From: Octopus vulgaris
Lineage: Eukaryota
Assembly: GCA_951406725.2 (NCBI GenBank)
Contig: OX597816.1
Span: 78,244,001-78,308,000, forward strand
Length of the DNA stretch: 64,000 bases
Reading direction: 5' to 3'
A program made the translations under genes and the position numbers. Positions 40,124-52,381 of the stretch are shown in pieces. The notes under the pieces were generated by a model. It searched no databases, was not told where the DNA came from, and saw only the letters and a program-made list of their open reading frames with translations. How positions within the stretch are numbered: the stretch's first letter is position 1; each line of letters starts with the position of its first letter.

Positions 40124-40865
40124 TTTCTGTTGCTGTTATTTATTTTGAAATTTTAAAGTGAACTGAAAATTTTCAAATTTGGTATATTGATATATTTTTT
40201 CACTCTGAATCCAATTTTGTGATTCATTTATTCCAGAAAAAGTTTAGAAAACTGTTACAGAGGCTTAAACTTTGGACATTTTTACCCAATCAGAAAACAG
40301 GATTTGTACATGATAGCTGTCATATATTAAAAATAAACATTAGAATACAAGGTTTTAAACAAAATGAAAGTAATGCATGAGCGTTAACACATATACAGAG
40401 AGAGAAAGAGAGAGTGTGACAAAGTGTGTGATAACTAATAGAGAGTAATAGAGTGATGGTAGCATAATAAAGAGTGTGAGATTTGTAGATATAAAACTGG
40501 AGTTATTTTTCATAGCAAATTATATTTTTTTAAAGTTATTTACGGACAACATTCTCTTTAGGATGTAGATTTCGAAAAACGAAATTGTTTTTCTCAAGGA
40601 GAACTGTTTCAGAATTTTTCAAGGCTAAACTGACATACATAACCACATACTTGCATTTACATAGTAGAAGATATATATGTAGATAGGTGAGGTAAAATCC
40701 CAGCTGTTTCCTCTTGAAGCACATCTGCTTATTCCATTATTATGATATAATAAGAAGTTGGTGTCGTTGCAACATATTAAAATTGAAAAATTCTGGAAAT
40801 ATTGTTTGCATAGTTATTGTATAACAAAACAAGAAGTTGGAAAATTTATTGAAATTATTATTCCC

Positions 40866-40996: not shown

Positions 40997-41121
40997 TATA
41001 TATATGTATGTATACACACACACACATACACATATGTATACATATGTGTGTGTGTGTGTGTGATGGATGTGGGTGCTGGTTCGTGTATGTGTATTTTGCT
41101 TATTTGTGTATGTTTAAGGAA

Positions 41122-41311
41122 TTAATAATCAGTATCCAATTGAACAATACTAAGGTAAGCTGCCTTCTGATTTTGTGTATAATTTACCTTAGAGTTGTGT
41201 GGTGATTTTGCAATTCCAATTTGGTCATTTGTGCTGATATGATGTATAACAGAATGTGAGAGGGTATCCTCAGCATATTTTTCTGAATGTAGTAGGACAA
41301 TGATGTTGCCT
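41122..41311 (-). CDS. TNF-superfamily ligand, terminal coding exon
   Basis: Acceptor TTTATTTTCTTTGCAG; phase 2. Reads (R)GNIIVLLHSEKYAEDTLSHSVIHHISTNDQIGIAKSPHNSKVNYTQNQKAAYLSIVQLDTDY*, matching THD strands F-H (DQI, final YLSIVQL). Confidence 0.75.
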
Positions 41312-41619
41312 CTGCAAAGAAAATAAATATATTAAAAAAATTTTGAAACAACTTAAACTATTCATATCTAAAAATGGTTTCTGATATGATTAAAGTATGA
41401 TTGCCATAGAAAGGTACTAACATCATGACAAAATAAACATGTGATACAGGATCTACGAAGATGGATAAAAAGTTTATAAGCTGACAATGAAAGATTGATG
41501 CTAGTGATGTGAAATCTTGAAAGCATCTATTCATTCTCTTCTTATTAATCATTGTATTGTTTCTTGCCAGATAAACTAACATCTGACTGTTCATAGGGCA
41601 TTTCAAAAGTAACTAGTAG

Positions 41620-42447
41620 TGATGTCTCTAGAAAATGGACAAAATCTGGCATCATAATGGGTTTAGTCCCCAGGGGATGATGCTCCAGTTTTATCAACAG
41701 TGTAAAAGTAGACATCTGAATTTAGAAGGGAAGGGAGAGTGTTGAAGAAGACCTGAAGTCTAGACATCCTGCAACTGCCACCACCAAGAAAAACATTGAT
41801 TGTATTCACCACATGGTGATGGATGACAGGTGATTGACTATAAATCCAATAGCCAATGATATTAAAATATCTTGTGAGAGAGTTGAGAATACTCTGCACA
41901 ATAAACTTGGCATCACAAAATTTTCTGCTTGGGGTGTCATATTTTCAAACATCTGATCAAAAGTGCACTAGGCTGATCCCATCACGGAAAAATCTGACAT
42001 TGTTTCAGACAGATCCATCTGGTTTCCTTGAACATTTCCTGACCCTGGATGAGTGTTGGCTTCACCACTTTAAACCAGAGATAAAGGGACAATCCATGCA
42101 GTGTAAACACCCCTCCTTGCCTGCTGTTAAGAAGGCCAAGTTTGTTTCATCTGCAGGGAAAATTATGGCCTCAGTTTTTCCAGTTACAAAAGGTATTGTG
42201 TTAATTGACTATCTTCAAAAGAGCCACATCATCAATGAAGAGTATGTCAATTATTGAGGCAGTTACAAAAGGCTATCAAGACCAAATGTCCAAGAAAACT
42301 GACAAAGGAGTCTTGTTTCATCAGGGACAATGCTCCAGCACACAAATCCTTGGTTTCAATGGCTGATATGCATGACTGGCTTTGAACTGGTTGACAACTC
42401 TCCCTATACTCCTGATTTGGCTCCATCTAACTATCATCTGTTCCTCA
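41620..42447 (+). mobile_element. Degenerate mariner transposase (in TNF intron)
   Basis: TLDECWLHHF, SAGKIMASVF, LIDYL, DNAPAH, YTPDLAPSNYHLF. Confidence 0.9.
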
Positions 42448-42570
42448 AGGAAGTATCACAGTAATAGTTATTTAAATTTTATAACTATAAAATACCTATT
42501 TAAATGTTGAAGGTATAAGAATTTAAAGAGAAATATTTTGTATTTGAATAGAATTATGAACAAAGTTTAC

Positions 42571-42666
42571 CTGTTTTCCTGTGTGATATAGCTAGACATC
42601 AGAATTTCTTCAGTTCCTGTACTTTTGATGAGTTTTGTTTCATAGCCATAAACTAAGTTTTGGAAT
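42571..42666 (-). CDS. TNF-superfamily ligand, internal exon (96 nt, phase 2-2)
   Basis: TGCAG| ... CAG|GTAAAC. Reads (E)FQNLVYGYETKLIKSTGTEEILMSSYITQEN(R), THD strands D-E. Phases match both neighbouring exons. Confidence 0.75.
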
Positions 42667-42689
42667 CTGCATATTACAGAACATCATGT

Positions 42690-43260
42690 TAATTTACTAG
42701 AATTATGGTATGGCTTATCAAAAAAATTAATTAGACAATTCTTTTTTGACAATATTGTGACTGATCTCATTTACTTCAACTTAATGTAACAAGCTGTCTC
42801 ATCAAGCATTCAAGATAACTTTGGAAACATGGAGTTTTATTTCCATCAAAATGAGGCACCCAACACTATCACAATAATGTAAAAGCCTACCTTGATGAAA
42901 TTTTGCCAAAGATGTGGATTGGATGAAGAAGTTCAGAATACTCTTTATATACACTAGACATTTTTCAAAGGGATAATTAAAAGATGATATTTACAGAATG
43001 AAACCAACAATGGTTGATGAATAGAAGACAGCCATTGATAGAGAATGTACACAAACACCAAGCAGAAAGTATCTTGATGTTTGGGATTCCATTACTTTGC
43101 ATTATCAGTAGTTCATCAGTTTGAAATGTTTATTAGTTTGAAATCAGGCTTTCATAGAAAAAATTAAATTCTTTCAATCAAATTTTGAAAATGAATTGTA
43201 TGTTAATAAACACTGACAGTATAGTCACTCAAAATGTGTATACAGTTTTTTGGTCACTCT
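42690..43260 (+). mobile_element. Degenerate Tc1-like transposase 3' part
   Basis: YFHQNEAPQHYHNNVKAYLDEILPKMWIG, LKDDIY; ends TTTTTGGTCACTCTTTA, a TIR-like end. Confidence 0.65.
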
Positions 43261-43329
43261 TTATGTATGTATGTGTGTGTATGTGTGTGTGTGTATATCA
43301 TGTCTATCTATCTATCTCTCTGGTTCTAT

Positions 43330-44285
43330 ATTTAAAAAATGAGGAATTATGTACATTATTTACATTTGACGGATATTTGTCCTCATCTTGTTTGTTGTTA
43401 ACACAATGTTTCAGCTGATATACCCTCCAGCCTTCATCAGCAGTTGTGGGGAAATTTTGAACCTGCGATGTCATTCCTAAGGTATTATTATTATTATTAT
43501 TATTAAGGTCACTGCCTGGAATCGAACTTGGAATCTTGGGGTTAGTAGCCTGCGCTCTTAACCACTATGCTCGTGGGCAATTATGGAGTGAATTTTAGGG
43601 CTTATAAATCTAATATTCTCCTATCCTTCCTTAATACCAGTTCCCATATGCTGTTCATATCTGCATTCGATCTGCTTAGGAGGTTGATGTGTCCTAGCAT
43701 ATGTGCTGCTTCTTTTAGTTTTCATATTTTCCAGTGGAGTTCTCTGTCTATTATCTTAACTTCATCCCACAGGGGGAGGTGGTCTCCATTTTTCCATACC
43801 CGATTTATCAATATCTCCCCGTGTCACAGCTTTGTGATGTTCCTCTACCCTTATTTTGAGTGGGCGGCATGTTTTGCCTTTGTATAACTTACCACAGCTG
43901 CATGGGATGGAGTACACACACTTCTTGGTCATATTCTCTTCTATTGGTGGTTTTACTCAAAGGAGATATTTGCAAAGTGTTGTATTACTTTTGAATACTG
44001 TCCTGATGTCATATGGGCCACATATCTTTTGTATCTTTTCGGAGAGGCCTTTCTCATAGGGTAGACAGTCTGTGGACCGTTTATCAGTTTCATCCTCCCT
44101 TTTCATCATAACTGGAGTGGAGAGTATGCTTTTGAGGTAGTTGTTACTTAATAGATTGTTACTGAGCTTGATTATTTTTTTGTGGTGGGTATCAAGATCG
44201 CTACTTATATTCATTGCTCGATGTTTTAGGCACTGAGCAATCCCTCTCTTTACACTGTATGGATGGCGGGAGTTGAAGTTGAGGT
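43330..44285 (-). mobile_element. Penelope-like element: RT thumb, GIY-YIG remnant and pseudo-LTR
   Basis: YLNFNSRHP, LPYEKGLSEKIQKIC..VFKSNTTL, VYSIPCSCGKLYKG; hammerhead core at 43401-43440. Confidence 0.85.
43401..43440 (-). ncRNA. Minimal hammerhead ribozyme core of a Penelope pseudo-LTR
   Basis: CTGATGA-A-GGCTG-(10 nt)-CAGCT-GAAAC on the minus strand. Confidence 0.6.
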
Positions 44286-44289
44286 ATAG

Positions 44290-44860
44290 TCCAGGATGTT
44301 ACAGTAACTGGTCCTAAGTGCAACAGCATTGTTGGAATCTTTGGCACTGTGCAGTGGTGACCCATTTTGGCATTTGTGTAGCTTTCAATGCCAAAATTTG
44401 GCACAATCTCTTCCAAGATCTTCCAAATAATCTTCACCCCAGGAAGTAGAGTCTTAGCTGTTTCAGCCTTTCCCAGTAGCTGAGCTGTTACAATGAGACA
44501 ATCTTTGTGAAGCTTCGCTGGATTGCTTCATGGTCCGCTGTTAATTTTACACTGTTGGGTGATTATAACCAGGAGCAGTAGTCCAAGTGACTGAGAACAA
44601 ATGTCCTCCAGAGGACCATCATGGTTCCCTACTCTCTAGTTTTGAAGGTTCTCAGGATCTGGCCAGCTAGCCATCTGCACTTTGTCGCTAACTTGGTAAT
44701 GTGCAATTGGAAAGAGGCATCATCACTCATGTCAATATCCAGGTCTTGCAATGATTTAGGTTCTGGGATTGTAATCTCCTGTAGGTCAGTGTACCCTGTA
44801 AGTTTTACATTCAGTTTGGGCACTGGTAGTGCAGGGCTTGGAATTTTACAGTATTAAGCT
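44290..44860 (-). mobile_element. Degraded CR1/L2-group LINE fragment
   Basis: QDLDIDMSDDASFQLHI, ILRTFKTRE, SHLDYCS, LSYWERLKQLRLY. Confidence 0.8.
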
Positions 44861-44870
44861 GCATATTATA

Positions 44871-45035
44871 GGCGCAGGAGTGGCTGTGTGGTAAGTAGCT
44901 TGCTTACCAACCACATGGTTCTGGGTTCAGTTCCACTGCATGGCACCTTGGGCAAGTGCCTTCTACTATAGCCTTGGGCTGACCAAAGCCTTGTGAGTGG
45001 ATTTGGTAGATGGAAACTGAAAGAAGCCCGTCGTA

Positions 45036-45088
<53 letters not shown>

Positions 45089-45172
45089 GTATGTATGTGT
45101 GTGTATATATTTGTGTGTCTGTGTTTGTCCCCCAACATCGCTTGACAACCGATGCTGGTGTGTTTACATCCC
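44871..45172 (+). mobile_element. tRNA-derived SINE (38565 family), 3'-truncated
   Basis: Near-identical head to 38565. Confidence 0.85.
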
Positions 45173-45616
45173 CTGAAGGTGAGAAAGTCTTTTTCGAGCC
45201 TACGCTTTTCAACAGAAGGGAACACAAGAAAATAAATAGAGAGATTAAAAAAAGAAAGCTTTAATAGCTAGCGGTCAATCATGGCGATGGCTGGACAGAG
45301 GTGGTCAAACAGGAGAGTTAGGAAGGAGGGGCGATAATAAAGTGGTGGTGATCCCAAAATGAAGGTGCACATGTGTGTTTGTGTGTGAGAGCATGTGTGT
45401 GCATATGGTTAGGGACTGGTGACCTTGACATGTGGGTGTGTGCATGATGGTATGGGTGGTGGCATATAAATATAAAAATGGGACAAAAACGCAATAGAGG
45501 AAAATAAAACATTTGGACAGATAGACGATAGAAAGGTGGACAAGTGGAACAACAATTAGAAGGACAGGCAAAAAAAGATGGGTCTCACACACACACACAC
45601 ACTATATATATATACG

Positions 45617-45705
<89 letters not shown>

Positions 45706-45708
<3 letters not shown>

Positions 45709-46996
45709 TCATCATCATCATCATCATCATTTAGCGTCCGTTTTCCATGCTAGCATGGGTTGGACGGTTCAACTGGGGTCTGGGGAGCCCGAAGGCTGCA
45801 CCAGGCCAGTCAGATCTGGCAGTGTTTCTACAGCTGGATGCCCTTCCTAACGCCAACCACTCCGAGAGTGTAGTGGGTGATTTTATGTGCCACCGACACA
45901 GGTGCCAGACGAGGCTGGCGAACGGCCACGCTCGGATGGTGTTTTTATGCCACCGACACAGGTAGGCTGGCAGACGGCCACGCTCGGATATGTGCACCGA
46001 CACAGGTGCCAGACGAGGCTGGCAGACGGCCACGCTCGGATGGTGTTTTTATGTGCCACCGACACAGGTGCCAGATGAGGCTGGCGGACGGCCACGATCG
46101 GATGGTGTTTGTTACGTCCCCAAAGCACGGAGGCCAGTCTATGCGGTACTGGCTACGGCCACGTTCGGATGATTTTCTTGTGTGCCACCGGCACTGGTAC
46201 CACAAAGATACAAATTCCATTTATGTTCATCTATTTTGATTTGATTTGATTTGATTTTCACTTGCCTCAACAGGTCTTCACAAGTGTCACAAGAAGGAAG
46301 GTATGCACAGGTGGACTGTCTACGTCGCCGGGTCTTCGGATGGTGTCTTTATGTGCCACCGACACAGGTGCCAGATGTGGCTGGCGAACGGCCACGATCG
46401 GATGGTTTTCTTGTGTGCCACCGGTACTGGAACCACAAAGATACAAATTCCATTGATGTTCATCTATTTTGATTTGGTTTGATTTTGATTTTGATTTTCA
46501 CTTGCCTCAACAGGTCTTCACAAGTGTCACGCGTGTCACACACTTGCCTCAACAGGTCTCCACAAGTGTCACACACTTGCCTCTGCCTCAACAGGTCTTC
46601 ACAAAGTGTCACACACTTGCCTCTGCCTCAACAGGTCTTCACAAGTGTCATAAGAGGGAAGGTATGCACAGGTGGACTGACTACGTCGCCGGGTCTTTGG
46701 ATGGTGTTTTTATGTGCCACCGACACAGGTGCCAGGTGAGGCTGGCGAACGGCCATGATCAGATGGTGTTTGTTGTGCCCACAGCACGGAGGCCAGTCGA
46801 TGCGGTACCAGCTACGGCCACGTTCGGATGGTTTTCTTGTGTGCCACCTGTACTGGAACCACAAAGATACAAATTCCATTGATATTCATCTATTTTGATT
46901 TGGTTTGATTTTCACTTGCCTCAACAGGTCTTCACAAGGGTCACACACTTGCCTCAACAGGTCTCCACCAGTGTCACACACTTGCCTCTGCCTCAA
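45706..46996 (-). mobile_element. RTE 3'-UTR copy with heavily expanded nested tandem arrays
   Basis: (CAT)n tail, conserved block, CCGACACAGGTGCCAG units, CACTTGCCTC..AACAGGTCT units, and higher-order duplications. Confidence 0.85.
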
Positions 46997-47018
46997 TATA
47001 TATATATTATATATATAT

Positions 47019-47082
<64 letters not shown>

Positions 47083-47872
47083 AGATAAGAAAATGGAGAA
47101 ATACATCTAAATCAAATATCAATTACCAGATAATACTCAATCACATACTTTATTAAACCACCACATAAGAGATTGTAGGGTTAAATATAAAAAGCAGAAC
47201 AAATCAGTGTACATAAAGGAATGTACATAAAAAGGTGTACATAAAAGAGTAATGTTGTATAATAAGTAGAATATATATAAAAGAGAATATAAATATAAGT
47301 AAATATAAATATAAGTATAGATTACATCTTACAGCTGTTTTGGCCATGTAGATAAGTATGTCTCATTTTACCAATATTAGCCTTTTATGGTAGGTCAATA
47401 TATAGATATAAATGAGACATTTACAAAAATATCATAAGGCCTCTTCGGAGATTATGTAATATAAATCAGTCTACATATATACCCACATGGGTGTGGGTAC
47501 ATACCCATAATACAACATATACATATACATATGAGTGCATATACTCACACTCCTATACATATAAAAATATACATATACATAATGATATAAATAAATAATA
47601 TAAATTAGTAAACATATATATGTGTTCCACATTCAATGTCTCAGTTTTTCGACTTAATATTGTGATAATAAACATACACAAATTAGTACATAGTCAATAG
47701 TACATTATATTACTTCATACTAATTTCTGAAGTGTCATTAAAGTTAGCATCATTATCGTTGTCAATACCATTAACGTTACCATTATTAGAATTCATAATA
47801 TTATTAATAACGCTTACATTAGGATCCAGAGTGGTACATATGTATGTCCGGGTTCAAGTTAGTAATTTTCTG

Positions 47873-48326
<454 letters not shown>

Positions 48327-48849
48327 TTCTGTTTGACAGAAGATTAGAGATTAGATTTCTAATCATTTTTCAGCTACAATATATATCATCATCATCATCA
48401 TTGTTTAATGTCCACCCTCCATGCTGGCATGAGTTGGATGGTTTGACTGAAGACTGGCAAACCAGGAGGCTGCACTAGTTTCCAGTCAGATCTAGCAAGG
48501 TTTCTAAAGCTGGATGCCCTTCCAATGCCAACCATTCCAAGAGTGTAGTGGGTGCTTTTTACGTGCCACCAGCACAGGGGTCAGTCAGGTGGTACTGGCA
48601 TCAACCACACTCAAATGGTGCTTTTTATGTACCACTGGCATGATATATATATATATTTAGGTTAGTTGAAATATGTTTGTCACACATTTCAACTGCTAAA
48701 GGCAAATACACTGCAGTTACCATGGAGAAAAAAATCTCCCTTATGGCAAAAAGGTGTGAAAACACCCAGTTCGTGTCGCCATCTCTCGGGAATCTCAGAT
48801 ATCGATGTTTCAAGTTTATTGTCTCTTGTTGATGAGATGTATCTAAGAG

Positions 48850-50720
48850 ATGATTCTTTATTACGATAATTATTTTTTCATACAAAGATAGGACAATACA
48901 GGACATTACAAACAAATAGTGTGTTTATGAGTTCTTTTTAAAGTGGTTTTACAGATTTTACAATTTACACTTGTCTGTGAAGCCCAACAGTTGCACCATA
49001 CTTTTTTTTTTATCAAGGATGAGATTAAGTAGGGTCATTCACACCTAACTTCCTTGCTACATCCTTCCATCTTTTCCTGAATATAATTTGCGACAGGTGT
49101 CTCCTCTCCAGCCCTATTTTGCTCTTCAGATGATATCTGAAGTAATATAGCAAACCAGGGTTGGAGATAAAAGTTCCCGTCATGACTCCTTTCATTCTAG
49201 AACTAGAACTCTTTCAACACTGTGACTGTACACAAAAACATGCCGCATCTTCCTTTGATAGTCCGGGTGGCGGTACAATCTTGATCATGGACTCAGCATA
49301 TAGCTGTACTCGTCCTAGATGCAACAGTATGTGTTCTATGTGAATTATCAAGTCTGAAAGCTCCAGGCACTGTACAAGAATGTGCAGAACAGTTTCATCA
49401 TCCTGCCCATACCTTGGGCATGCTGGTGGCACAGACATTCCATGCCTAGACAATTTGTCATGAACAGGTAATGCACTCCTATAGCACTGCTAGGTAAGGG
49501 ATTTCTGGTAGTTATCAGGTACCCTGGCCTGAAAGGTCTTTGAAACAGGTTGGCTAGCTGGCCCTCATTGAGTCCGTCTTAAACTCTACCATCTCTCTAT
49601 AGAATACCAAGGTGATATTCCCACTACCGGCCTTATGGATTAGCATGAGTGCCTGTTGGCACTCTTTTTGCCATTCAGTCATGTTGTATCTTTTAATGAA
49701 GTCAGGTTTGAGTCCCTCCAAGGAGGCCAGTCGTGGAAAGAATTCCTCCACCAGCGAATTCCATACCTGGTCACCATTCAAATAGAGCCAGAGGTGCCTT
49801 AGCCTCAGCGCATGCCTGTACATCATTAGCCATGGCATTCCTAACCCACCCTTTAGTGGTCCTTGGCAGCAAACAGAGCACTTCACAGGCAGTTTTCCTC
49901 CCCTCCACAAAAAGCAGAAGAGAAAGCGTGCCAACTTGCTTAGCCATGAATCAGAGCAAGGGACAATGGTCAGATGGTAGGTAATAAAAGATGCAATATA
50001 CACGTGCACCACCTCTTCCCTCCCTTTCAGGGATAGTGCCCTTCCAGACCAGGTCTGGATGAGGGCTTCCACCCTAACCGCCACCTCATACCAATTCTTC
50101 TGTCTGGGAATCTGGTCCAAACTAGATTCCAAACAACTTAACAGGACCATCCGTCCAGTGCCCCATGTCGCTGGACGTTATTGTCTTGCCACTCTAGGTG
50201 CCAAGTCACAAGCTGATGGACTTATTCTTGTTAATTTTCGCTCCTGCTACCACCTCATATCCTTTGATTGCATCCTCTACACAATGTAGCTGAGCTTCAT
50301 TGGACACGGTGATGGTGACATCATCCGCATATACCAAAACAGACTTATTATATCCCAATTCATTGGAGATGCCGCCCCACAAACTCTCCAGCCTCTGCAG
50401 CAATGGCTCATGGGCCAATACATACAGAAGTGGAGACAGTGGGAACCCTTGATGAACTGTGCACTCGATCCTAAATGGCACTGACTGTTTATTGGGACTG
50501 TGGATTTGATACTGCCAAAAATGGCAGTGATCCAACCACAGAAGTCCGGGCCTAGCTCAGCCACCACCAGATACTGGTGTTCTACTCTATCAAAAGATTT
50601 ACTTTGGTCTGAATGGACCAGTGCCCCACCTTTACCAGATAGTTTACCAATCCTCTCTAAGGGGTAGTGCAGGAGATGGAGATTATCCTAGATTGACCTG
50701 CCTGGAATGGTGCATGTCTG
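48850..50720 (-). mobile_element. Tx1/L1-clade LINE, degenerate RT and zf-RVT
   Basis: DQSKSFDRVEHQYL, HQGFPLSPLLYVL, YADDVT, LSLKGR, KGGLGMP, CPRYGQDDETVLHILVQC. Confidence 0.9.
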
Positions 50721-50905
50721 TGCCCTCCCAACAAAATTCTCCGTGGCATGGCCAAAGAAAAGAAACTCTGAATGAACTAAATAAAGCTTATAGCTTTATA
50801 TATATTTCAGCCAGCATGTTGACTGATTTGTGCTAGTAGATTGCCCAATCAAGAAAAAATATTGGAGTAACGTCACAAAGCAGTGTTTACATATAATCAC
50901 AATTT

Positions 50906-51210
50906 TTTTTTTTGTTCCTTCTCGAGCCATGCCTGGCTCATAAGGGCCGGTTTCCCGGTTTCTTGCCGTATAGGTTCCCCACCTGGACGGGACGCCAGTC
51001 CGTCACAGGTGAGCTGCAAGATGCAGGAAGAAAGAGTGAGAGAAAGTTGTGGCGAAAAAGTCAGCAGAACTTCGCCATTACCTTCTGCTGGAGCCGTGTG
51101 GAGCTTAAGTGCTTCGCTCATAAACACACACATCGCCCGGTCTGAGATTCGGACCGGTGATCCCTCGACCGCGAGTCCGCTGATCTAACCACTAGGCCAT
51201 GTGCCTCCAC
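50906..51210 (-). mobile_element. Young full-length tRNA-derived SINE (Meta/V-domain-like) with 14-bp TSD
   Basis: TATAATCACAATTT at 50892-50905 and 51211-51224; A box TGGCCTAGTGG; CTGTGACGGACTGGCGTCCCGTCCAGG core; poly(A) tail. Confidence 0.88.
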
Positions 51211-52248
51211 TATAATCACAATTTAGGTTAGTTGAAATATGTTTGTCACATATTTCAACTGCTAAAGGCAAATGCACTGCAGTAATCATGGAGAAAAATC
51301 TCTTTTATGGCAAAAAAGGTGTGAAAACACCCATCAATGCCTGAGATTCCTGAAAGATGGCGACACTGAATGAACTGGGAATGTCAAAGAACTGGTGATT
51401 TGTTATCCTTGAGTAGACCTGTCCAGCAAAGTAAAATCAAGGCCATAAAGGCATGTCCTTAATGTCTATGCCCCCTTACCACACACAATCTGTCCCCTCA
51501 CCCAACAAACCTCCATGACCCAAATTCCCAAAGCCCTTTTCTCTTACCCATGCTCACCACCCACTGCATTCCTTTCTATTCTCCCTTCTGTACCTACCTG
51601 CACACAATATGTCTCTGTTGAATTACTTCCCCCCCCCCCCTTGCAACGTATCCTCTACAATACACCTTTCCTCCACCTTGTGCCCACTCAACAAATCACC
51701 TCCCTCCCATCTACTACCCCCCTTTCACACAATCTCATGGACTCACCCACTCGCACTCTTGAATCCCTAGTCCACTCACTCTCACCATCATCTCCCTGTC
51801 ACATCTTCACCATCTTCTCTCTCTCCACTCTTTCCCTATGTGAGGCAGCCATGTGTATCTTCTAATGCAAAACATTTTTTTTCTGTCCCTCAATACTACT
51901 CCCACCTCAGGTGAGATGTCATGCCTTGCAAGTTATTTGGTGACCTCACTATTGCTGGTGCCTTGTAAAAAAAACACCCAGTACACTCTGTAGAGTGGTT
52001 GACATTAGGAATCAACAACCAACTGTAGAAACCATGCCAAAGCAGGCAGCAGGGACTGGTGAAGTCTTTTGATTTGCCAGTTCCTGTCAATCCATCCAAC
52101 CCATGCCAACATAGAAATCAGATGTTAAATGATGTTAATGATGATGAGGATGATGATGATGATGGTGATATGTATTAATTTTTCTCTGACCCAGCATTGA
52201 ATGTCTAATAACTGAAAGAAATAGAAAAATAAAAAAAATTGCAATTAC

Positions 52249-52381
52249 TCGCTTTGTCCTCTAACAACGATCTGTGACATAATCAGAAAAATCCCACTTG
52301 TCTGAAAGGTAAGAGTTCCGTTTTCGTTGTATGCTATTTTACTCTGAGTTCCAATAGATGAAGGGTCCCATCTAAAGAGCC
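52249..52381 (-). CDS. TNF-superfamily ligand, internal exon (133 nt, phase 1-2)
   Basis: Acceptor TCTTTTTTTCCAG, donor GA|GTAATT. Reads LFRWDPSSIGTQSKIAYNENGTLTFQTSGIFLIMSQIVVRGQS, the W..Y..G-L...G-x-aromatic-xx-SQ..RG pattern of THD strands A'-C. Confidence 0.8.

Follow-up and report, generated by a model that had tools for sequence, protein, structure and literature searches.

Results

Gene structure and transcript support

The window, the whole 64-kb stretch of Octopus vulgaris DNA analysed here, holds on its minus strand the last three of seven coding exons of a gene for a TNF-like protein. The features are given below in window positions, except for exons 1-4.

52381-52249, minus strand: coding exon 5 of 7, 133 nt, codons 132-176, phase 1 in and phase 2 out; predicted TNF strands A' to C
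42667..52248, minus strand: intron 5/6, 9582 nt, GT-AG, phase 2, at codon 176 in the predicted C-D loop
42666-42571, minus strand: coding exon 6, 96 nt, codons 176-208; predicted strands D and E, with the motif common to oyster and snail relatives
41312..42570, minus strand: intron 6/7, 1259 nt, GT-AG, phase 2, at codon 208 in the predicted E-F loop
41311-41122, minus strand: coding exon 7, 190 nt with stop TAA, codons 208-270; E-F loop and predicted strands F, G and H
41097..41121, minus strand: start of the 3' UTR; contigs reach 41097, followed by a skipped simple-repeat zone, with the first AATAAA near 40850
G000:C3:78341143-78340880, 78327628-78327589, 78320972-78320941 and 78311928-78311871: exons 1-4, outside the 64-kb window

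A sequence-only reading of this DNA had joined three minus-strand exons with GT-AG borders, matching phases (1 and 2, 2 and 2, 2 and stop) and introns of 9582 and 1259 nt. Coordinates, phases and protein match all reproduce; AG precedes each of the three exons and the donors are GT. Seven GT-AG coding exons together encode 270 residues that are letter-for-letter those of RefSeq XP_029633980.1 (P0001; Octopus sinensis, 'uncharacterized', LOC115209654), and the 138 residues joined from the window are residues 133-270 of this protein. The gene is therefore not hidden, as had been claimed, since the identical protein stands in RefSeq and UniRef names its O. bimaculoides orthologue 'TNF family profile domain-containing protein'. 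The TNF domain had been placed over at least three exons; the split is real, and the domain covers four exons, with its first strand in exon 4 beyond the window. Genome searches with P0001, exon 7 and P0004, whose counts are lower bounds, found no second copy and gave three weak C9 matches with stops (E 0.25-2.7), and by these searches the gene appears to be single-copy.

The last two junctions are spliced. The joint 41311/42571, which skips 1259 nt and reads CT..AC on the plus strand, is bridged by one contig in each of four of four RNA-like runs from four studies, their RNA status being the tool's guess and none of the runs listed being recorded as RNA. At 42666, a contig of run X13 carries, among the loose ends listed, one that is identical to window positions 52249-52278; support for the 42666/52249 junction consists of this one loose end and the lengths of contigs, exon 5 and the long intron lying outside contig coverage. 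Both junctions had been named for checking, and the shorter one is thus bridged in all four runs while the longer one has an exact loose end in a single run. A pseudogene is ruled out by the junction data. Contigs of all four runs also read through exon 7 to 41097, and an internal donor is unused there.

A dispersed repeat fills about 1 kb (~41454-42448) of the shorter, 1259-nt intron (4156 candidates, of which 40 were scored, at 73-82% identity), for which terminal inverted repeats were not found. In the 9582-nt intron, 3112 bases (about a third) match elsewhere within the ~0.2 Mb of DNA compared.

Protein layout

The features of a type II layout are present, namely a single N-terminal hydrophobic anchor, a stalk and a C-terminal domain, and the orientation would be that of the family. 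The hydrophobic segment lies at about 22-41 of the 270 residues (Kyte-Doolittle peak 2.14 at 23-41, positions 1-60 scanned), the segment before it has about 21 residues and no Pro, and the full-length AlphaFold model (three sequences, pLDDT 34.6) has a helix at 17-53. Anchor and domain are ~75 residues apart; this spacing fits the 50-100 residues used to filter invertebrate TNFSF members in bioRxiv 2024.07.27.603686, and speaks for the TNFSF reading. A furin-type polybasic motif, R-F-R-R, lies at 93-96 in both octopus species as a putative cleavage site, and P0008, P0009 and P0013 have polybasic stretches in a comparable position. A Gly-X-Y collagen stretch is not present in the anchor-stalk-domain protein.

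The sequence-only reading rightly described the recovered 138 residues as without Cys, with two N-glycosylation sequons (N152 and N251) and as highly divergent. The domains of P0001 and P0002 both lack Cys, identity to solved TNF ligands in the fold searches is 9-18%, and the family signatures GLY and FFG are here G-I-F and Y-L-S. The His cluster that had been pointed out does exist (five His, at 216, 227, 231, 232 and 246), but the count gives no support for a special feature, as relatives and paralogues have 1-8 His.

Family assignment by sequence

TNF is the sole Pfam family at E<=10 for P0001 and for P0002. P0001 matches Pfam TNF (PF00229) with E 1.9e-4 over residues 136-266 and profile positions 3-127 of 127, at 21.8 bits, which is under the 23-bit cut-off, and C1q (PF00386) is unmatched by P0001 at E<=10. 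Exon 5 by itself gives Pfam TNF at E 0.027, exons 6 and 7 individually give no Pfam family at E<=10, and PDB sequence searches returned no match with exon 5 alone or with a 3-sequence profile. In the PDB, a 7-sequence profile matched RANKL (E 4e-5), TRAIL and Eiger, and FasL weakly (E 0.12); C1q was absent from the 60 of 75 matches listed. In the Atlas, the best matches are TNF at 0.91 and 0.90 (196-200 of 256 features), with C1q at rank 13 and 0.84, an entry that is a cluster with 13% C1q members. A profile of 13 octopus paralogues alone gave the protein 6.3 bits, a score that 21 of 1000 shuffles also reached, and so does not pick it out. The genome-wide Pfam TNF search returned five matches and missed the gene itself; L008, L010 and L011 are weak or have stops.

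Predicted structure and trimer

AlphaFold modelled residues 113-270 with pLDDT 80.0 and pTM 0.78. Octopus TNF-like paralogues made up 13 of the 22 rows of the alignment behind it, so that the model could lean towards the TNF fold. All rows listed by Foldseek with this model are TNF ligands (E 4e-9 to 7e-8). VIA-align, over 48,161 chains, gave EDA-A1 a Z of 16.3 (rmsd 2.6, 135 aligned), APRIL/BAFF 16.0, FasL 16.0 and Eiger 15.2. Ranks 1-18 are all TNF ligands (Z 13.5-16.3), and the first C1q stands at rank 19 with Z 13.5, a gap of 2.8 Z from the top. The domain is predicted to be a jelly-roll beta-sandwich nearest to TNF ligands. The special tie to FasL that had been proposed is not supported by the fold searches, where FasL is level with CD40L, TRAIL, TNF and EDA.

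A trimer prediction had been suggested as a check. Predicted without an alignment, the homotrimer scored 0.83 against 0.09 for the best control (contact agreement between runs at least 77%, pLDDT at least 75), a score that may come from the predictor's memory because TNF trimers are already solved. Among solved microbial pairs 21 of 30 attain the mark that was set, as against 0 of 23 single chains; in eukaryotes 17 of 29 do (7 of 16 in animals), but only 1 of the 7 that lack an older solved relative, and none of 30 single chains. Seven subfamily-invariant residues, Q168, S201, I203, T204, Q205, D223 and Y260, sit in the predicted trimer interface.

Relatives and the octopus TNF repertoire

XP_014789043.1 (UniRef A0A0L8FKF9) is the O. 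bimaculoides orthologue, with 86% identity and 132 of 158 domain residues identical. Both this protein and XP_029633980.1 are automatic models named 'uncharacterized' in RefSeq, and both show the anchor form. No paper on LOC115209654 came up in a literature search restricted to texts with this locus number and four further terms. Four further relatives were recovered among 1.84 billion proteins, all four matching Pfam TNF and three of them over the cut-off, and word-indexed homologue searches (alignments A1 and A3) gave nothing new beyond octopus and Physella. In the tree, which is midpoint-rooted, has no outside TNF sequences and leaves out the near-duplicates P0004, P0005 and P0010, the gene clusters with proteins of oyster and snail at 98/95 support. 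XP_062567512.1 (Saccostrea), XP_059164203.1 (Physella), P0008 and P0006 likewise have the anchor-stalk-TNF layout, the strand-E motif L-x-x-S-x-I-T-Q and D223, but they differ in their domain identity of only 22-37%, in keeping two Cys within the compared columns, and in last strands closer to canonical.

Identity to the 13 octopus paralogues is 10-21%, and both phase-2 introns of the gene are missing from the 13 other octopus TNF-like loci. Our searches suggest about 16 TNF-like loci in octopus, compared with the six reported for O. vulgaris in bioRxiv 2024.07.27.603686. TNFR-type repeats gave eight matches in the octopus genome, five of them over the cut-off, and these are candidate receptors; TNFR-like ectodomains lie at C3:106.66 Mb, C7:2.37 Mb and C7:57.6 Mb.

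Discussion

We put at roughly 70% the probability that this gene encodes a membrane-anchored, protease-released, trimeric signalling ligand of the TNF type. The 270-residue product would be a type II membrane ligand of the TNF superfamily, with a topology taken from the family, and its C-terminal jelly-roll domain likely trimerises. A furin-type cut would likely release it from the membrane, shedding being expected from the family, and the ligand would then bind a TNF-receptor-family protein and signal, with a putative role in cell-death, stress or immune signalling. We infer the term cytokine from family membership, and that membership itself is almost certain.

An alternative that we regard as rather unlikely is a protein with the TNF fold that is not an autonomous homotrimer, and that would act as a heterotrimer partner, a decoy or a membrane-only modulator of other octopus TNF ligands. 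The strong divergence, even from the 13 paralogues, the altered family signatures and the many other TNF-like genes as possible partners agree with it, whereas the predicted homotrimer (with the memory caveat), the subfamily-invariant residues in its interface and the polybasic site kept in O. bimaculoides weigh against it. A C1q-type or lectin-like jelly-roll protein is very improbable: C1q heads do share the fold, as the structural hit at rank 19 and the mixed Atlas cluster show, but the absent Pfam C1q match, the 18 structural rows of TNF ligands above it and the lack of collagen Gly-X-Y speak against it. The proposed comparison of TNF with C1q favours TNF, with support from Pfam, from the search with a sequence profile, from the Atlas and from both fold searches. 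The Usp-TNF fusion of GenBank CAI9719519.1 (P0003), without the anchor and the last strands, is still less credible as the product of the gene. This model is present in NCBI and UniRef, but its Usp exons lie ~50-100 kb upstream and its tail ~60 kb downstream, its residues 122-168 come from a repeat matching dozens of places, contigs of all four runs pass the internal exon 7 donor, and the anchor is present in two RefSeq models; the chimeric model is very likely wrong. Chance or pseudogenic exon fragments, suggested by exons that are individually weak (one of three with any Pfam match at E<=10), can be dismissed in view of the spliced contigs, the intact 270-codon frame and the domain conservation in O. 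bimaculoides.

The TNF-type ligand is a divergent but ordinary member of its family, because a split TNF domain has precedent, and our understanding of the family is unchanged because split domains and His-rich invertebrate ligands have already been described. What is modestly new is the oyster and snail grouping of a single-copy gene together with two phase-2 introns that are absent from its 13 paralogues and differ from the Eiger intron. An 'uncharacterized' octopus protein receives a name, and since cephalopod cytokines are barely studied, a conserved, apparently single-copy ligand that is likely shed offers a concrete starting point for receptor pairing. We speculate, at less than even odds, that cephalopods may have in this gene their one representative of an old mollusc TNF subfamily, as yet unnamed, that predates the cephalopod-bivalve-gastropod split, with a trimer core rebuilt on polar and His residues (Q168, S201, T204, Q205, D223, H227 and H231), with all domain Cys lost in octopus, and with two loop introns gained independently of Eiger and EDA. 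If this is true, octopus would have three TNF lineages, the other two being the TRAIL-like gene and a tandem array expanded to at least 12 genes, and the present lineage might have a trimer sensitive to pH and a receptor of its own.

Arthropod Eiger (SfEiger 6I50, Drosophila 6ZT0) is, like the octopus protein, an invertebrate type II TNF ligand with a jelly roll (Z 14.9-15.2). In moth Eiger, three exons encode the TNF domain, strand A is followed by a phase-1 intron, and the surface is His-rich (PMC6684607); the multi-exon domain and this phase-1 intron are common to both genes, and a split TNF domain is not exceptional. The second SfEiger intron is phase 0 and directly follows the strand-C Y-x-Q (by-eye reading of PMC6684607 Supplementary Fig. 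1), unlike the octopus introns, which are both phase 2, one of them eight codons past Q168 and the other within the E-F loop. TACE is the protease that sheds Eiger (PMC8024323). Eiger also has the strand E-F disulfide that defines the EDA/BAFF/APRIL/TWEAK/Eiger group (PMC6684607), whereas the octopus domain has no Cys. R-X-K/R-R stalk sites characterise BAFF, APRIL and TWEAK (PMC2193079), and the octopus protein has such a furin-type site in common with them. EDA, BAFF, APRIL and TWEAK give the best or near-best structural scores, with FasL, TL1A and CD40L tied within 1 Z. Their TNF domains are multi-exon, and vertebrate EDA and BAFF share a phase-0 intron after the strand-C Gln. The octopus protein differs from them in lacking the E-F disulfide and an EDA-type collagen stretch and in an identity of 11-14%. 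Membership of the E-F-disulfide group was rejected on the missing Cys and on the missing phase-0 intron after the strand-C Gln (intron at codon 176, Gln at 168).

FasL, TRAIL and RANKL are the best sequence-profile matches of the octopus protein, and its identity to these and to L007, a TRAIL-like octopus locus (hhalign probability 94%), is 15-21%. FasL has a proline-rich cytoplasmic tail. Orthology with FasL was rejected, given its ties with other ligands, its profile E and the Pro-free segment before the anchor. Vertebrate conventional TNF genes run from the conserved Trp to the stop in one frame. L007 does so as well, whereas the present gene has two more introns there. The two octopus genes share a predicted phase-1 acceptor shortly 5' of the conserved Trp.

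Results

The three short minus-strand exons that the sequence-only reading had joined are the last three coding exons of a seven-exon gene, and their coordinates, GT-AG borders, phases and intron lengths are all present in the sequence as claimed.

Coding exons of the gene inside the window
52381-52249, minus strand: coding exon 5, AG acceptor and GT donor, phase 1 in and 2 out
42666-42571, minus strand: coding exon 6, AG acceptor and GT donor, phase 2 in and 2 out
41311-41122, minus strand: coding exon 7, AG acceptor, phase 2 in, ending in the stop codon

GT-AG introns of 9582 and 1259 nt separate exons 5/6 and 6/7. A query with exon 7 retrieved the 270-aa Octopus sinensis RefSeq protein XP_029633980.1 (P0001; 100% identity, named 'uncharacterized'), a GenBank model of 397 aa from O. 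vulgaris, and an O. bimaculoides orthologue whose UniRef name is 'TNF family profile domain-containing protein'. Within the window and 50 kb of adjoining DNA, seven GT-AG exons that spread over 56 kb, four of them outside the window, reproduce the 270-aa protein exactly. The GenBank model (CAI9719519.1, 397 aa, G000:C3:78225140-78438903 in genome numbering) was rejected as the real product because parts of it are drawn from distant or repeat DNA, namely exons of an upstream Usp gene about 50-100 kb away, an exon derived from a repeat, and a tail that lies about 60 kb downstream; it is very likely a chimeric mis-prediction that fuses these to the gene. Ahead of the annotated ATG, an in-frame upstream ORF of four codons begins 30 nt upstream (G000:C3:78341144-78341173) and an AG lies 4 nt upstream; an additional exon there is conceivable.

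The joint between 42571 and 41311 is present in contigs of all four public runs, from four studies and presumed to be RNA, and the exact skipping of a GT-AG intron by a contig is hard to account for except by splicing. For the upper junction (52249/42666), the rows listed show a loose end of the contig from run X13 at 42666 that is identical to window 52249-52278. The X13 contig carries 545 letters beyond 42666, compared with 527 for exons 1-5, and the contig from run X1 extends by exactly 133, as many as exon 5 has; both lengths fit this junction too. The analysis as a whole shows the gene structure, the splicing of its last two junctions and its conservation. The X1 contig stops exactly where exon 5 begins (window 52381, the exon 4/5 junction), a possible sign of branching, for example through alternative splicing or unspliced RNA. 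Most of the 1259-nt intron is occupied by a 1-kb dispersed repeat (window 41454-42448) whose candidate copies number in the thousands, with identities of 73-82%; a search for terminal repeats of this element found no clear ones.

TNF, and not C1q, is the sole Pfam family matched by P0001 (E 1.9e-4), at 21.8 bits against a cut-off of 23. Among 1.84 billion representatives searched exhaustively, six proteins reached E<=0.001: two are octopus entries, and the remaining four (oyster, snail and two further proteins) all match Pfam TNF, three of them over the cut-off. PDB matches of the seven-relative profile include RANKL, TRAIL and Eiger, and TNF clusters rank top in Atlas. The oyster-snail profile, with rows picked by similarity, recognises P0001 at 65.3 bits (best shuffle, 12.5); a profile of 13 paralogues alone does not, 21 of 1000 shuffles scoring as high.

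With an alignment of 22 rows, the structure model for residues 113-270 attained pLDDT 80, although the 13 paralogue rows may have biased it; an earlier full-length model from a 3-row alignment failed. Foldseek returned only TNF ligands among the matches listed, and in VIA-align 18 TNF ligands rank first, led by EDA-A1 (Z 16.3, rmsd 2.6, 135 aligned), while C1q stands at Z 13.5. APRIL/BAFF, FasL, TL1A, CD40L and BAFF all lie within 1 Z of EDA-A1, and with FasL alongside these others FasL orthology was rejected. Alignment-free prediction gave a homotrimer at 0.83 against 0.09 for the best control (contact agreement at least 77%, pLDDT at least 75), a pass that may stem from solved TNF trimers already known to the predictor, with a small calibration (microbes, 21/30 pairs and 0/23 singles; eukaryotes, 17/29 pairs, including animals 7/16 and 1/7 without a solved relative, and 0/30 singles). 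The unusual F strand, H227 and H231 among its residues, belongs to the predicted interface, as do the relatives' invariant residues Q168, S201, I203, T204, Q205, D223 and Y260. Confidence is low for the long, hydrophobic E-F loop at residues 206-221 (window about 41270-41311 plus 42571-42577), where a short helix is predicted; a Cys pair spans this loop in P0008, a relative grouping with mollusc proteins, and is absent from octopus.

Outside the domain, a segment whose hydrophobicity peaks at 2.14 (23-41) follows about 21 N-terminal residues, and the stalk carries R-F-R-R at 93-96 with more basic residues up to 101. The protein as a whole has six sequons and a single Cys, located in the anchor; membership of the E-F-disulfide group was rejected because the domain has none. 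By its predicted fold and its layout the protein is a TNFSF member; the jelly-roll fold and the homotrimer are predictions of the models.

In a 19-domain tree, P0008 is the first to join the gene and its orthologue (100/99), and the proteins from oyster and snail come next (98/95); L007 and the 12 cluster genes stand separately. Such a subfamily is a lead rather than a result, because the relatives were selected by similarity and outside TNFs were left out. L007 (G000:C3:15797761-15798147), which we call 'TRAIL-like', is a canonical TNF domain exon that scores 89.3 bits in Pfam, and searches found it as a single copy. Twelve TNF-like single-frame domain exons lie within about 0.67 Mb on C24, and C28 has two further places, one in two pieces (L017-L028; G000:C24:29827268-30492999, C28:10094086-10806651). 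These cluster exons are 31-43% identical to L009, another octopus TNF-like locus, and of 12 fetched, 10 match Pfam TNF at E<=0.1 and four reach the cut-off. They outnumber the six O. vulgaris paralogues that bioRxiv 2024.07.27.603686 reports in one lineage-specific clade. Invertebrates are described as having 1 to 24 TNF genes, with poorly resolved relationships to those of vertebrates (PMC7674686).

Discussion

Our results identify the gene as a new, divergent member of the TNF ligand family. A literature search that demanded the locus number plus four further terms found no paper, and, judged by title or abstract, broader searches on octopus or cephalopod TNF listed no study of the gene. By analogy, the protein may work like a shed TNF ligand: it would insert as a type II membrane protein, be cut by a furin-type convertase, as PMC2193079 describes for BAFF, APRIL and TWEAK, and be released as a glycosylated trimer lacking disulfides, which could bind a cysteine-rich receptor 3:3, as Eiger binds Grindelwald (PMC8024323). 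Candidate receptors, judged from TNFR cysteine-rich repeats, lie at G000:C3:106656566-106657030 (four repeats in one open frame), C7:2365884-2366003 and C7:57613707-57613820.

The first predicted strand (116-124) is encoded in exon 4, so the domain occupies four exons.

Introns within the TNF domain (minus strand; positions on the model)
Codon 132: phase 1, after strand A
Codon 176: phase 2, C-D loop
Codon 208: phase 2, E-F loop

In all 13 other TNF-like loci examined in this genome, a single frame continues from the conserved Trp through to the stop codon, with a candidate phase-1 acceptor 11, 20 or 29 nt upstream of the Trp (three loci by eye from the flank). Thus, the first domain intron looks shared with these loci, and the two phase-2 introns look particular to the gene among them. 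Conventional TNF ligands have a single large last exon, and BAFF and EDA are multi-exon.

The exon assembly and the family call of the sequence-only reading were right, and its split over at least three exons holds. The surprise is nevertheless less than it claimed: the gene was not hidden, since a model was already in RefSeq and the family label in UniRef, and neither the split domain nor the His cluster is exceptional beside Eiger of S. frugiperda, for which PMC6684607 gives three coding exons in the TNF domain and 30 surface His per trimer. The TNF domain is multi-exon in both. Eiger has a phase-1 intron after strand A and a phase-0 intron directly after the strand-C Gln (PMC6684607 supplement, by eye), and in this second intron it differs from the octopus gene.
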